Origin: Eledone cirrhosa
Lineage: Eukaryota
Assembly: GCA_964016885.1 (NCBI GenBank)
Contig: OZ024743.1
Coordinates: 98,704,001 to 98,768,000, forward strand
Reading direction: 5' to 3'
Length of the DNA stretch: 64,000 nucleotides
Shown one piece after another: positions 2,031 through 9,170 of this stretch (the stretch's first letter is position 1; each line of letters begins with the position of its first letter). Both the position numbers and the translations under genes were made by a program. The notes under the pieces were generated by a model. The model made no database searches. It was not told where the DNA came from and saw only the letters and a program-made list of their open reading frames with translations.

Positions 2031-2205
2031 ATATATATATATATATATATATATATATATATATATATATATTTATATATATATATATATATATATATAT
2101 ATATATATATATATATATATATATATATATATATATATATGTATATATTTATATATATATATATATATATATATATATATATGTATATATATATATATAT
2201 ATATA
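2031..2205. repeat. (TA)n microsatellite, left flank of the ribozyme array
   Basis: Direct reading. Confidence 0.97.
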
Positions 2206-2393
2206 GATAATTTAATATATCAACTAACATAAGCGCACAGATGCACGCCCATGCCAGCAAATACACAGGTTATGTCATAGTACCTAGGTGGTTCAATGCA
2301 GGAGAATGCAGAACAATAATATAAAGGACGTAAAATAAGAAAATATTTTTTTAAAAAAAATTTAAAAAAAATTTTTTTCTTACTTAAATTTTC

Positions 2394-2475
2394 ACTCCAA
2401 CTAATTAGTTTCTGCAATGGGATAAAGACAGTTATGTAATCCAACTGTCGAGAATTCATTGCGTCATCAGGAAGT
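2394..2475 (-). ncRNA. Hammerhead ribozyme copy
   Basis: Reverse complement of 5547-5628. Confidence 0.78.
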
Positions 2476-2956
2476 CTATTCTCAGTTAAGTCTCCAGGCA
2501 ATGCGCGGACACTGGCGGCTCATATAAAAATAATAATAATTCGGTAGATCGAACAGCTTGCGAGGACTGGATTCCATGTACCGAAATTCTCACTGCTTCA
2601 AGTCAAATGGCCGATTCTAAAGAATCAATCACGTGACACAGAGGCTAGTTAGAAGGAATGGGATGGTAAGATGACTGACGCCTACTAACACCCCAAAAAA
2701 AAAAAAATTTTTTTAGAAGTGGTTTTGACAAGTTTGCTCGACAAATCAGTGATTTGGAGATAAATATAGATAATTTAATATATCAACTAACATAAGCGCA
2801 CAGATGCACGCCCATGCCAGCAAATACACAGGTTATGTCATAGTACCTAGGTGGTTCAATGCAGGAGAATGCAGAACAATAATATAAAGGACGTAAAATA
2901 AGAAAATATTTTTTTAAAAAAAATTTAAAAAAAATTTTTTTCTTACTTAAATTTTC

Positions 2957-3038
2957 ACTCCAACTAATTAGTTTCTGCAATGGGATAAAGACAGTTATGT
3001 AATCCAACTGTCGAGAATTCATTGCGTCATCAGGAAGT
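2957..3038 (-). ncRNA. Hammerhead ribozyme copy
   Basis: Reverse complement of 5547-5628. Confidence 0.78.
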
Positions 3039-3517
3039 CTATTCTCAGTTAAGTCTCCAGGCAATGCGCGGACACTGGCGGCTCATATAAAAATAATAAT
3101 AATTCGGTAGATCGAACAGCTTGCGAGGACTGGATTCCATGTACCGAAATTCTCACTGCTTCAAGTCAAATGGCCGATTCTAAAGAATCAATCACGTGAC
3201 ACAGAGGCTAGTTAGAAGGAATGGGATGGTAAGATGACTGACGCCTACTAACACCCCAAAAAAAAAAATTTTTTTAGAAGTGGTTTTGACAAGTTTGCTC
3301 GACAAATCAGTGATTTGGAGATAAATATAGATAATTTAATATATCAACTAACATAAGCGCACAGATGCACGCCCATGCCAGCAAATACACAGGTTATGTC
3401 ATAGTACCTAGGTGGTTCAATGCAGGAGAATGCAGAACAATAATATAAAGGACGTAAAATAAGAAAATATTTTTTTAAAAAAAATTAAAAAAAAATTTTT
3501 TTCTTACTTAAATTTTC

Positions 3518-3599
3518 ACTCCAACTAATTAGTTTCTGCAATGGGATAAAGACAGTTATGTAATCCAACTGTCGAGAATTCATTGCGTCATCAGGAAGT
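3518..3599 (-). ncRNA. Hammerhead ribozyme copy
   Basis: Reverse complement of 5547-5628. Confidence 0.78.
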
Positions 3600-4087
3600 C
3601 TATTCTCAGTTAAGTCTCCAGGCAATGCGCGGACACTGGCGGCTCATATAAAAATAATAATAATTCGGTAGATCGAACAGCTTGCGAGGACTGGATTCCA
3701 TGTACCGAAATTCTCACTGCTTCAAGTCAAATGGCCGATTCTAAAGAATCAATCACGTGACACAGAGGCTAGTTAGAAGGAATGGGATGGTAAGATGACT
3801 GACGCCTACTAACACCCCAAAAAAAAAAAAAAAAAAAATTTTTTTAGAAGTGGTTTTGACAAGTTTGCTCGACAAATCAGTGATTTGGAGATAAATATAG
3901 ATAATTTAATATATCAACTAACATAAGCGCACAGATGCACGCCCATGCCAGCAAATACACAGGTTATGTCATAGTACCTAGGTGGTTCAATGCAGGAGAA
4001 TGCAGAACAATAATATAAAGGACGTAAAATAAGAAAATATTTTTTAAAAAAAAATAAAAAAAAAATTTTTTTCTTACTTAAATTTTC

Positions 4088-4169
4088 ACTCCAACTAATT
4101 AGTTTCTGCAATGGGATAAAGACAGTTATGTAATCCAACTGTCGAGAATTCATTGCGTCATCAGGAAGT
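4088..4169 (-). ncRNA. Hammerhead ribozyme copy
   Basis: Reverse complement of 5547-5628. Confidence 0.78.
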
Positions 4170-4652
4170 CTATTCTCAGTTAAGTCTCCAGGCAATGCGC
4201 GGACACTGGCGGCTCATATAAAAATAATAATAATTCGGTAGATCGAACAGCTTGCGAGGACTGGATTCCATGTACCGAAATTCTCACTGCTTCAAGTCAA
4301 ATGGCCGATTCTAAAGAATCAATCACGTGACACAGAGGCTAGTTAGAAGGAATGGGATGGTAAGATGACTGACGCCTACTAACACCCCAAAAAAAAAAAA
4401 AAATTTTTTTAGAAGTGGTTTTGACAAGTTTGCTCGACAAATCAGTGATTTGGAGATAAATATAGATAATTTAATATATCAACTAACATAAGCGCACAGA
4501 TGCACGCCCATGCCAGCAAATACACAGGTTATGTCATAGTACCTAGGTGGTTCAATGCAGGAGAATGCAGAACAATAATATAAAGGACGTAAAATAAGAA
4601 AATATTTTTTTAAAAAAAATTTAAAAAAAATTTTTTTCTTACTTAAATTTTC

Positions 4653-4734
4653 ACTCCAACTAATTAGTTTCTGCAATGGGATAAAGACAGTTATGTAATC
4701 CAACTGTCGAGAATTCATTGCGTCATCAGGAAGT
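4653..4734 (-). ncRNA. Hammerhead ribozyme copy
   Basis: Reverse complement of 5547-5628. Confidence 0.78.
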
Positions 4735-6677: not shown

Positions 6678-6759
6678 ACTTCCTGATGACGCAATGAATT
6701 CTCGACAGTTGGATTACATAACTGTCTTTATCCCATTGCAGAAACTAATTAGTTGGAGT
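6678..6759 (+). ncRNA. Hammerhead ribozyme copy
   Basis: Same sequence as 5547-5628. Confidence 0.78.
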
Positions 6760-7240
6760 GAAAATTTAAGTAAGAAAAAAATTTTTTTTAAATTTTTTTT
6801 AAAAAAATATTTTCTTATTTTACGTCCTTTATATTATTGTTCTGCATTCTCCTGCATTGAACCACCTAGGTACTATGACATAACCTGTGTATTTGCTGGC
6901 ATGGGCGTGCATCTGTGCGCTTATGTTAGTTGATATATTAAATTATCTATATTTATCTCCAAATCACTGATTTGTCGAGCAAACTTGTCAAAACCACTTC
7001 TAAAAAAATTTTTTTTTTTTTGGGGTGTTAGTAGGCGTCAGTCATCTTACCATCCCATTCCTTCTAACTAGCCTCTGTGTCACGTGATTGATTCTTTAGA
7101 ATCGGCCATTTGACTTGAAGCAGTGAGAATTTCGGTACATGGAATCCAGTCCTCGCAAGCTGTTCGATCTACCGAATTATTATTATTTTTATATGAGCCG
7201 CCAGTGTCCGCGCATTGCCTGGAGACTTAACTGAGAATAG

Positions 7241-7322
7241 ACTTCCTGATGACGCAATGAATTCTCGACAGTTGGATTACATAACTGTCTTTATCCCATT
7301 GCAGAAACTAATTAGTTGGAGT
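7241..7322 (+). ncRNA. Hammerhead ribozyme copy
   Basis: Same sequence as 5547-5628. Confidence 0.78.
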
Positions 7323-7808
7323 GAAAATTTAAGTAAGAAAAAAATTTTTTTTAAATTTTTTAAAAAAAAATATTTTCTTATTTTACGTCCTTTATATTAT
7401 TGTTCTGCATTCTCCTGCATTGAACCACCTAGGTACTATGACATAACCTGTGTATTTGCTGGCATGGGCGTGCATCTGTGCGCTTATGTTAGTTGATATA
7501 TTAAATTATCTATATTTATCTCCAAATCACTGATTTGTCGAGCAAACTTGTCAAAACCACTTCTAAAAAAATTTTTTTTTTTTTTTTTTGGGGTGTTAGT
7601 AGGCGTCAGTCATCTTACCATCCCATTCCTTCTAACTAGCCTCTGTGTCACGTGATTGATTCTTTAGAATCGGCCATTTGACTTGAAGCAGTGAGAATTT
7701 CGGTACATGGAATCCAGTCCTCGCAAGCTGTTCGATCTACCGAATTATTATTATTTTTATATGAGCCGCCAGTGTCCGCGCATTGCCTGGAGACTTAACT
7801 GAGAATAG

Positions 7809-7890
7809 ACTTCCTGATGACGCAATGAATTCTCGACAGTTGGATTACATAACTGTCTTTATCCCATTGCAGAAACTAATTAGTTGGAGT
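7809..7890 (+). ncRNA. Hammerhead ribozyme copy
   Basis: Same sequence as 5547-5628. Confidence 0.78.
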
Positions 7891-8372
7891 GAAAATTTAA
7901 GTAAGAAAAAAATTTTTTTTAAATTTTTTTTAAAAAAATATTTTCTTATTTTACGTCCTTTATATTATTGTTCTGCATTCTCCTGCATTGAACCACCTAG
8001 GTACTATGACATAACCTGTGTATTTGCTGGCATGGGCGTGCATCTGTGCGCTTATGTTAGTTGATATATTAAATTATCTATATTTATCTCCAAATCACTG
8101 ATTTGTCGAGCAAACTTGTCAAAACCACTTCTAAAAAAATTTTTTTTTTTTTTGGGGTGTTAGTAGGCGTCAGTCATCTTACCATCCCATTCCTTCTAAC
8201 TAGCCTCTGTGTCACGTGATTGATTCTTTAGAATCGGCCATTTGACTTGAAGCAGTGAGAATTTCGGTACATGGAATCCAGTCCTCGCAAGCTGTTCGAT
8301 CTACCGAATTATTATTATTTTTATATGAGCCGCCAGTGTCCGCGCATTGCCTGGAGACTTAACTGAGAATAG

Positions 8373-8454
8373 ACTTCCTGATGACGCAATGAATTCTCGA
8401 CAGTTGGATTACATAACTGTCTTTATCCCATTGCAGAAACTAATTAGTTGGAGT
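8373..8454 (+). ncRNA. Hammerhead ribozyme copy
   Basis: Same sequence as 5547-5628. Confidence 0.78.
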
Positions 8455-8937
8455 GAAAATTTAAGTAAGAAAAAAATTTTTTTTAAATTTTAAAAAAAAA
8501 AATATTTTCTTATTTTACGTCCTTTATATTATTGTTCTGCATTCTCCTGCATTGAACCACCTAGGTACTATGACATAACCTGTGTATTTGCTGGCATGGG
8601 CGTGCATCTGTGCGCTTATGTTAGTTGATATATTAAATTATCTATATTTATCTCCAAATCACTGATTTGTCGAGCAAACTTGTCAAAACCACTTCTAAAA
8701 AAATTTTTTTTTTTTTTTGGGGTGTTAGTAGGCGTCAGTCATCTTACCATCCCATTCCTTCTAACTAGCCTCTGTGTCACGTGATTGATTCTTTAGAATC
8801 GGCCATTTGACTTGAAGCAGTGAGAATTTCGGTACATGGAATCCAGTCCTCGCAAGCTGTTCGATCTACCGAATTATTATTATTTTTATATGAGCCGCCA
8901 GTGTCCGCGCATTGCCTGGAGACTTAACTGAGAATAG

Positions 8938-9019
8938 ACTTCCTGATGACGCAATGAATTCTCGACAGTTGGATTACATAACTGTCTTTATCCCATTGCA
9001 GAAACTAATTAGTTGGAGT
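8938..9019 (+). ncRNA. Hammerhead ribozyme copy
   Basis: Same sequence as 5547-5628. Confidence 0.78.
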
Positions 9020-9089
9020 GAAAATTTAAGTAAGAAAAAAATTTTTTTTAAATTTTTTTTAAAAAAATATTTTCTTATTTTACGTCCTT

Positions 9090-9170
9090 TATATATATAT
9101 ATATATGTATATATTTATATATATATATATATATATATATATATATATATATATATATATATATATATAT
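9090..9170. repeat. (TA)n microsatellite between the two ribozyme elements
   Basis: Direct reading. Confidence 0.97.

Follow-up and report, generated by a model that had tools for sequence, protein, structure and literature searches.

At positions 2031-9171 of the window (the whole 64,000-nt stretch of Eledone cirrhosa DNA analyzed here), a mobile repeat with a hammerhead motif forms a young insertion with two arms. This insertion consists of two back-to-back arms of a 563-bp hammerhead-bearing unit within a TA microsatellite (Table 1), whose outer ends fall on two fixed sites of the unit, A and B. Pairing of one A end with one B end is a habit of the whole repeat family, not a one-off at the window locus. 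The repeat is probably a non-LTR retrozyme mobilised by a Penelope-like element (PLE), both strands of a (TA)n tract having been primed on one RNA, likely a monomeric circle. Such double priming on one RNA is suggested by the fixed A and B ends, the A+B pairing, the haplotypes shared by the arms, the TA targets and the microhomology junctions.

Table 1. Features of the two-armed locus (window positions)
Feature	Position	Strand	Description
Left (TA)n tract	2031..2200		Putative target
Left arm	2201..5266	-	3066 nt, 5.4 tandem units; ribozyme motif on the - strand
Site B TATAT	2201..2205	-	Outer end of the left arm; putative priming site
Head-to-head junction	5262..5266		5-nt microhomology TCCAA common to both arms
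Right arm	5262..9094	+	3833 nt, 6.8 tandem units
One hammerhead motif	6114..6196	+	Type I, minimal/PLE-like; predicted cut after GUU at 6191
One of the copies of the 118-nt A-to-B stretch	6272..6389	+	Counterpart of the PLE "tail", by comparison
Site A TATAT	9090..9094	+	Outer end of the right arm; putative priming site
Right (TA)n tract	9095..9171		Putative target; TA run including site A is 9090-9171

The left arm extends from an inner end at unit position ~315-319 to position 2201, its 3' end in the RNA sense (site B, unit position 558), reading ...AATTATCTATAT at 2205-2201. The right arm begins at unit position 1 and ends at site A (unit position 440), reading ...GTCCTTTATAT at 9090-9094. 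The predicted ribozyme cut, at unit position 360/361, coincides with neither outer end. Hence the preliminary description was correct in placing both outward-facing ends at two different TATAT sites within (TA)n, neither of them at the cleavage site, and the arm lengths agree with the 5.4 and 6.8 units it had given. It had also noted that the mobilising reverse transcriptase (RT) is absent from the window; indeed, tblastn of the window with two Penelope-type ORFs gave 0 matches, so no such RT lies inside it, and the RT and GIY-YIG ORF of an autonomous PLE are lacking. The flanks beyond the TA tracts show no mirror symmetry (best local score 22 over 300 nt) and are not duplicated, which contradicts the DNA-level duplication including flanks that had been considered as a refutation. 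The palindrome at 9172-9453, beside the locus, belongs to a separate family.

The unit is non-coding (GC 0.36, longest stop-free frame 99 aa, no LTR), and its length varies from 561 to 570 nt across the window copies. The 12.2 units of the window have 0 substitutions outside homopolymer runs; in the right arm, homopolymer variants alternate between units. Each tandem unit carries a type I hammerhead motif, 12 whole motifs being counted in the window: five in the left arm (predicted cuts after 4658, 4093, 3523, 2962 and 2399) and seven in the right arm (after 5623, 6191, 6754, 7317, 7885, 8449 and 9014). The motif listed in Table 1 comprises a 5-bp stem I, CUGAUGA, a long stem II, GAAA and a palindromic stem III. 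At the base of stem II, C and A are unpaired: the G10.1-C11.1 pair is present, preceded by the unpaired C and followed by the extra A, and minimal hammerhead motifs of PLEs likewise have an unpaired C before the G-C pair (PMC4209133). An Rfam search of the window at the gathering score gave no match, which, like the extra A, weighs against the mechanism favoured below. Across three subfamilies, stem II and its distal stem have changed in a compensatory way, and the hammerhead core is retained in 318 counted units. Of 327 passes over the predicted cut, 324 have an exact seam, which hints, at the genomic level only, at self-cleavage and a circular RNA.

Copies of the unit are dispersed over 1306 candidate places in the genome. 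Site A has 262 exact ends and site B, 118 nt away on the unit, has 561; reversed control patterns gave 0. Two other TATAT sites of the unit, at 541-545 and 234-238, account for 7 and 0 ends, so complementarity to TA alone does not choose the site. Thus, the ends of the tabulated genomic copies fall within (TA)n at one or the other of these sites A and B, not at random non-TA positions, and the preliminary description of the ends as TATAT within (TA)n holds with one amendment: not any TATAT serves, but a fixed pair, one site per arm. The first set of loci, which is enriched for pairs, includes 59 two-armed and 33 single-arm loci. Left out before this count were L112 (diverged), L125 (fragmented), L041 (empty extension), the PLE loci L117-L121 and six small or old-copy fragments; L216 (incomplete locus) was excluded as well. 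Of the 63 lone B ends on contig C1, 20 were retrieved. In these 92 loci, 149 of 151 RNA-3' ends run into TA repeats, and 23 of 33 single-arm 5' ends adjoin TA. All 59 two-armed loci have the back-to-back geometry that had been noted in the window.

The pairing rule is most evident on contig C1, where all 130 exact ends were considered: they form 24 back-to-back pairs, all of them A+B, with 0 A/A and 0 B/B (P about 9e-10 under independence of ends). Among two-armed loci not selected as pairs, A+B is found in 50 of 52 (23/24, 11/12, 14/14 and 2/2 by locus set); one A/A locus, L047, is an exception. A further 23 loci (L082-L104) were selected as A+B pairs and give no independent support for the rule.

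A PLE of the Neptune/Nematis type in the same genome obeys the same A+B rule, with 26 A+B among 29 back-to-back clusters. The family encodes an RT with a C-terminal GIY-YIG domain and a CX4CxxC linker. In all, 37 PLE loci were examined, from 10,596 GIY-YIG candidates. The order hammerhead, A, tail, B in the unit is the order in the pLTR of this PLE, where the A-B spacing is 50 nt. The insertions of this Penelope-type element have the anatomy of those of the repeat, in support of the preliminary interpretation. The unit has no sequence similarity to the sampled PLE families. An autonomous element carrying the unit was not found among the 37 loci (blastn and a two-sequence profile); the sole match, L156, was rejected as such a partner, being a separate neighboring insertion in the same TA tract.

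In the mechanism we consider probable, the hammerhead would cut transcripts, and ligation would yield a 563-nt circle. A Neptune/Nematis-type PLE protein, probably a dimer, would bind the circle and cleave (TA)n. One TA 3' end would pair with UAUAU of site A, the other with site B, 118 nt downstream; as the ends pair at A and B separately, each site would be used once. Two RTs would then proceed around the circle in the same direction, displacing each other's cDNA (for 6.8 and 5.4 turns in the window), and microhomology (TCCAA) would join the two cDNA ends, with second strands filled in. We tentatively regard it as a real possibility that a PLE dimer double-primes a cut microsatellite at two fixed sites of one circular ribozyme RNA, with two RTs chasing each other round the circle, and that PLEs in general, the autonomous ones among them, owe their tandem and inverted structures and their one-sided tails to this process. 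If true, this would be the first genomic evidence of animal retrozyme circles as true insertion templates.

The nature of the template can be addressed by comparing the arms. In 27 of 31 loci they do not differ at any informative site (permutation mean 5.8, maximum 13 in 5000 permutations), and poly-T length is correlated between the two arms (rho 0.92, n=24). In the 46 loci with at least three units, 52 non-common letters occur in every unit of their locus vs 4 in some units only (four loci), and 12 rare fixed letters occur in 11 of these loci. The L040 variant has 15 copies in the assembly, every one in L040. The window variant has 19, of which 12 are in the window and at most five in any other array, the latter without the long poly-T; its 7 additional copies at three loci led us to drop the notion of a "private" variant. 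For these two of the 11 loci with rare variants, a longer donor array was sought in the assembly, and none was found.

A circle is favoured over a linear multimer as the template. The alternative, that the PLE double-primes at A and B on a linear multimer of an uncut donor-array transcript, each arm length being the distance its RT ran along the multimer, is unlikely. It explains the A+B pairing and the shared haplotypes equally well, a dimer bound at one place being enough for the pairing, and it fits the partly repeating variants of L040, L038 and L057 and the alternating homopolymers of the window's right arm. In particular, the variants of L040 are linked and repeat in part (6 of 15 units), a pattern that is not given by a single monomer read with random errors. 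Moreover, the main PAc substrate described in vitro is uncut RNA (PMC11167929), minimal PLE hammerheads cleave weakly (PMC4209133), and the donor could be missing from this assembly. Still, a linear multimer presupposes a donor that carries the same variants in all its units and is no shorter than the longest arm. In this assembly the window and L040 have no such donor, and many separate donors would be required to account for the rare variants fixed in 11 of the 46 loci.

Considerably less probable is dual priming, in which each DNA end receives its own RNA from one active source and an asymmetric complex imposes A vs B. If one RNA serves both ends, as we prefer, strand displacement is needed, because in 49 of 57 loci the B arm continues past site A; with two RNAs it no longer is. 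Dual priming is also consistent with the lack of correlation between the arm lengths of a locus (rho 0.20, p 0.13, n=57) and with the A/A locus L047, and it has already been proposed for L1 (PMC2837659). However, many haplotypes are active, yet the arms agree in sequence and in poly-T length as given above, and the 24/24 A+B pairs on contig C1 require an extra asymmetry.

Preferred positions of the inner ends of the arms are weak in the first set: 3 of 118 lie at the ribozyme cut (0.84 expected), 4 just past site A and 7 just past site B; in the validation set each of these classes has 0 of 30. The sole class that is repeated is stops within an A/T homopolymer block (19 of 151 in the first set, 7 of 30 in the validation set). 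At L085 (both arms), L129 and the autonomous L214, arms begin at the predicted cut, as expected for linear cut RNA. Inner ends are at most 15 nt apart at 9 of 59 junctions, several at local palindromes, while the other 50 connect unrelated unit positions. The former agree with resolution by the endonuclease, in which GIY-YIG would cut fold-back double-stranded cDNA at TATAT and join it to (TA)n, as does the resemblance of A and B to the target; this is also the origin proposed for PLE tails (PMC8557442, section 6). The 50 unrelated junctions are impossible by fold-back, and the presence of one A and one B per locus and the unused TATAT at 234 are left unexplained, which makes this route quite improbable.

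A second arm that starts where the first stops (within 15 nt), as in L1 twin priming, is found in 6 of 59 loci vs 6.3 expected; adjacency was thus dropped as being at chance level, even though in the window only 5 nt separate the start of the right arm from the putative priming site of the left arm. L1 twin or dual priming (Meyer et al. 2010, PMC2837659) shares the priming at two ends, the back-to-back arms and the inner microhomology. As described there, L1 uses an internal second primer and gives non-overlapping arms with a deletion, whereas here the sites are fixed and the arms overlap over many units. Since the second arm does not start at the first one's stop and the arms overlap on the template (the 49 of 57 B arms running past A), L1-type twin priming is ruled out. 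Hence, of the twin priming suggested in the preliminary description, the priming by both TA ends is supported, but not its L1-style form. The ends carry no poly(A), and a target-site duplication within (TA)n is readable only against an empty allele.

Finally, an artefact of assembly or of chimeric reads is very improbable, as is a later inversion at the DNA level in an ordinary satellite array: (TA)n is its own inverted repeat and perfect palindromes lie close by, but more than 70 loci on many contigs share the polarity and the same two ends with differing junctions, the flanks are unmirrored, and a reciprocal inversion would be expected to leave a TA remnant, which the junction lacks.

With non-LTR retrozymes (PMC7229834; Li et al., bioRxiv 10.64898/2026.07.22.740005), the repeat shares non-coding tandem units of low GC (36% here), a type I hammerhead per unit, dispersed dimers to multimers, and PLEs in the same genome. 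Units described in these texts are 150-450 bp long with a canonical motif, vs 563 bp (561-570 bp over the window copies) and a minimal/PLE-like motif here; that range is descriptive, no mechanistic limit. Inverted two-armed insertions with fixed ends in (TA)n targets are not described in the text of PMC7229834 or of Li et al.: the word "inverted" has 0 uses in the former and one in the latter, for MITEs. A literature search found no closer work than that cited here; such insertions may be described in subscription papers or bioRxiv supplements, which were outside its scope. On twin priming with Penelope the search gave only work that looks unrelated, as judged by title and the start of the abstract. 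Local amplification by unequal crossover, the route preferred by Li et al., is at odds with the fresh two-armed arrays; our data argue that arrays arise as multimers at insertion, not by later unequal crossover. Reverse transcription of circles into tandem cDNA by PLEs was proposed, not shown, for metazoan retrozymes, according to the text of Cervera and de la Pena 2020 (PMC7229834).

With EN+ PLEs of the Neptune/Nematis type, as described by Craig et al. 2021 (PMC8557442), the insertions share an inverted 5'-truncated copy, a tail often at one end, partial tandems, a microsatellite bias and a hammerhead (in the pLTR there); bias to (TA)n targets is known in Neptune and Naiad. Of these traits, the inverted 5'-truncated arm, one-end tail and (TA)n bias are present here. 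The unit differs in having no ORF, a 118-nt tail vs 30-40 nt, and up to 15 units per arm. The tandem and inverted insertions of PLEs and their one-end tail are named as an open problem in that paper. The near-absolute A+B, same-haplotype rule, which this family offers in hundreds of very young insertions, provides simple tests for both this problem and that of the copying of retrozyme circles.

A close biochemical counterpart is Poseidon PAc of Anolis in vitro (Frangieh et al. 2024, PMC11167929), where likewise both strands are cut and extended, targets are AT-rich, two internal RT start sites bound the tail, and a dimer is predicted. In PAc, however, RT starts at AC-rich sites that lack complementarity to the cut DNA, a point against the favoured mechanism, whereas here both sites are UAUAU, matching the target; moreover, no strand difference is reported for PAc, while here one site is used per strand. 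For an in vitro PLE system, a 563-nt RNA together with a (TA)n target would be a candidate minimal substrate.

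The array in the window consists of two arms of a 563-nt unit (Table), with a repeat length of 561-570 bp and no substitutions among 12.2 units, homopolymer runs left aside. The preliminary description of two arms ending at different TATAT sites, both within (TA)n and away from the ribozyme cut, proved exact: with position 1 of the 563-nt unit set at the inner start of the right arm, site B lies at 558 and ends the left arm, site A lies at 440 and ends the right arm, each TATAT passes into a (TA)n tract, and the predicted cut is at 360/361. At their junction the arms share 5 nt of microhomology, TCCAA. 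The sequences flanking the array show no mirror symmetry. Poly-T in this array is 11-20 nt long, compared with 8-9 in most loci. A T-to-A boundary shift in the homopolymer block of the right arm, with the length kept, is seen in units 2, 4, 6 and is absent from 1, 3, 5, 7; the alternation may reflect a dimeric template, RT slippage or base-calling.

Features of the window
Feature	Positions	Ribozyme motif strand	Description
Left arm	2201-5266	minus	5.4 units
Right arm	5262-9094	plus	6.8 units
Inverted repeat	9165-9460		perfect 130-nt arms, 36-nt spacer; adjoins array
Broken LINE	11000-14040		AP-endonuclease and RT motifs in several frames; ends in (ATG)n run
Inverted arms	14493-14726		~30 bp, flanking long (TA)n tract
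34-bp satellite	15626-64000		higher-order periods 65 and 99 bp; at least 48 kb

The unit does not code for protein: its longest frame without a stop is 99 aa. Its GC content is 0.36. Judged by its sequence, it contains a type I hammerhead motif with a 5-bp stem I, CUGAUGA, a long stem II having one C and one A unpaired at its base, GAAA and a palindromic stem III, the predicted cut following GUU. At the Rfam gathering level this motif obtained no score. Stem II is preserved in three subfamilies by differing paired sequences, and double changes occur at 3 of 18 predicted pairs in six copies. The minimal hammerheads of PLEs (Penelope-like elements) likewise have a long stem II, a short stem I, a palindromic stem III and an additional base after A9 (PMC4209133), but not the extra A before G12; the motif is a putative ribozyme.

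A search of the 3.0-Gb assembly with one unit gives 1306 candidate places. Ends that pass exactly into (TA)n were counted 262 times at A and 561 times at B (0 in reversed controls), the surplus at B being owed partly to older copies whose A context changed; the other TATAT sites of the unit yield 7 (541-545) and 0 ends (234-238, counted with a longer probe). In a set of 92 loci, TA repeats follow 149 of the 151 RNA-3' ends, and TA also lies beside the 5' end in 23 of 33 single-arm copies. Tabulating ends, flanks and inversions of genomic copies, as had been advised, returned the same two sites, TA flanks and a back-to-back orientation in 59/59 two-armed loci of this set. Among individual loci, L219 carries a 93-nt foreign insert with a 16-nt duplication within its array (757-849), ~235 nt of foreign sequence separate the two arms of L094 (2133-2366), and in L209 the entire two-armed insertion is duplicated, 2 kb apart.

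The two sites are paired. Both end lists are complete for contig C1 (39 A and 91 B), and all 24 back-to-back pairs there combine A with B (P ~9e-10 under independent site choice). Among loci not selected as pairs, A+B is found in 23 of 24 long arrays (the exception, L047, is A/A), 11 of 12 two-armed loci located behind lone ends (the exception, L140, is a fragment), both sister loci, and all 14 two-armed loci of a validation set (the first 20 A ends on contig C2 outside the earlier sets, 6 being single-armed). Subfamily 2 (534 bp, 79% identical, 2931 candidates) possesses A and B sites of its own, separated by 112 nt and paired likewise in L177, L180, L182, L183 and L190 among 18 loci shown. 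Its B end is often followed by (TC)n rather than (TA)n (L173, L177, L183, L184, L190), and a third subfamily with a different stem II is seen in L179 and L184.

In L1 twin priming the second primer anneals within the RNA, giving non-overlapping arms with a deletion (PMC2837659). The 5-nt adjacency of arms in the window is not general (6/59 loci against 6.3 expected), the arms overlap, and the B arm passes through site A in 49/57 loci; the L1-style form is therefore rejected. Both arms exceed one unit in 22/57 loci, and their lengths are uncorrelated. Inner ends lie at many positions and are in excess only within the A/T homopolymer block (19/151, then 7/30). Of the 59 junctions, 30 show an overlap of 1-8 nt, 10 are blunt, and a gap or insert is present in the other 19.

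The genome contains 10,596 GIY-YIG candidates. In one PLE family (unit 4184 nt) the order is hammerhead, site A, 50-nt tail, site B, start codon; it ends in (TA)n and, like the retrozyme unit, has a mismatch of the same kind at the stem II base. For its two end patterns the counts are 1594 and 1125, internal copies being included in the latter. Over the initial 174.6 Mb of C1, A+B accounts for 26 of its 29 back-to-back clusters; two of the other three were inspected, one A/A representing two insertions and one B/B having an internal pLTR on one side. Since this autonomous family shows A+B, the rule is a property of PLE insertion in this genome rather than of the repeat alone. A PLE with the unit as pLTR was not found among 37 PLE loci nor within the window, in agreement with the earlier statement that the mobilising RT is not in this window. 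The broken APE-RT LINE (11.0-14.0 kb), probably RTE-like, is another kind of element. Autonomous arms longer than one unit reach upstream of the TATA-like motif of the pLTR (L212 524, L213 4858); a single promoter-initiated linear RNA would not permit this. In L156 (330-1310) a PLE and a subfamily-2 copy lie on opposite sides of one long TA-rich tract, and thus share targets.

According to PMC11167929, a PLE protein, predicted to be dimeric, cuts and extends both strands, with two internal start sites on either side of the tail. Retrozymes accumulate in circular form, and their copying into tandem cDNA by PLE RT has been proposed (PMC7229834). Beyond the directly observed fixed ends, pairing, shared haplotypes, TA targets and junctions, priming from both target ends, driven by a PLE, is very probable. 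A single protein complex would use one RNA to prime the two TA ends, A serving one end and B the other; the two RTs would move in the same direction, each displacing the other's cDNA, a monomeric circle would yield any number of identical units per arm, and the gap would be closed through microhomology. This complete model is favoured with moderate confidence.

Of 327 passes across the predicted cut, 324 have an exact seam, as expected of a ligated circle or of an uncut multimer but not of sloppy end-to-end jumping. Non-common letters in 46 loci with at least three units (115,301 bases) comprise 52 fixed in all units, 43 singletons and 4 present in several but not all units; in 11 loci, a total of 12 rare letters are fixed. 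Two such cases, L040 and the window, were searched genome-wide: all 15 copies of the L040 variant are in L040, and the 19 of the window variant are divided between the window (12), one shorter array with short poly-T (5) and two single copies. No array fit as a linear template for either was present in this assembly, and a linear multimer is an unlikely template. A purely monomeric one is opposed by L040, whose 15-unit arm (1185-9573) has one locus-private variant in every unit, but a second in 6/15 units, linked to run-length variants and partially repeated with periods 3 and 8; by three further loci with variants in two units; and by a few arms that begin at the predicted cut (L214 4771-4774 in the autonomous family, L085 386-387 and L129 3470 in the retrozyme), which hints at occasional use of cut linear RNA as template. 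Across 56 informative sites the two arms do not differ in 27/31 loci (5000 permutations: mean 5.8, maximum 13 loci), and their poly-T lengths match (rho 0.92, n=24); two RNAs, one per arm, are improbable. Resolution at the DNA level is still less probable, and an artefact is hardly credible.

Non-LTR retrozymes and their proposed PLE origin are already known (bioRxiv 10.64898/2026.07.22.740005), as are inverted PLE insertions with the tail on one side in microsatellites (PMC8557442). In the literature searched, subscription papers and preprint supplements aside, we found no description of two-armed retrozyme insertions, no quantified one-site-per-strand rule and no haplotype evidence for a single rolled template.

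The overall repeat landscape is reminiscent of a cephalopod genome. The inverted repeat next to the array represents a separate MITE-like family with fixed ends (95 candidates); in 9/9 loci shown, one flank is (TA)n and the other a short sequence common to them all, and many of its matches span only one arm and the spacer.
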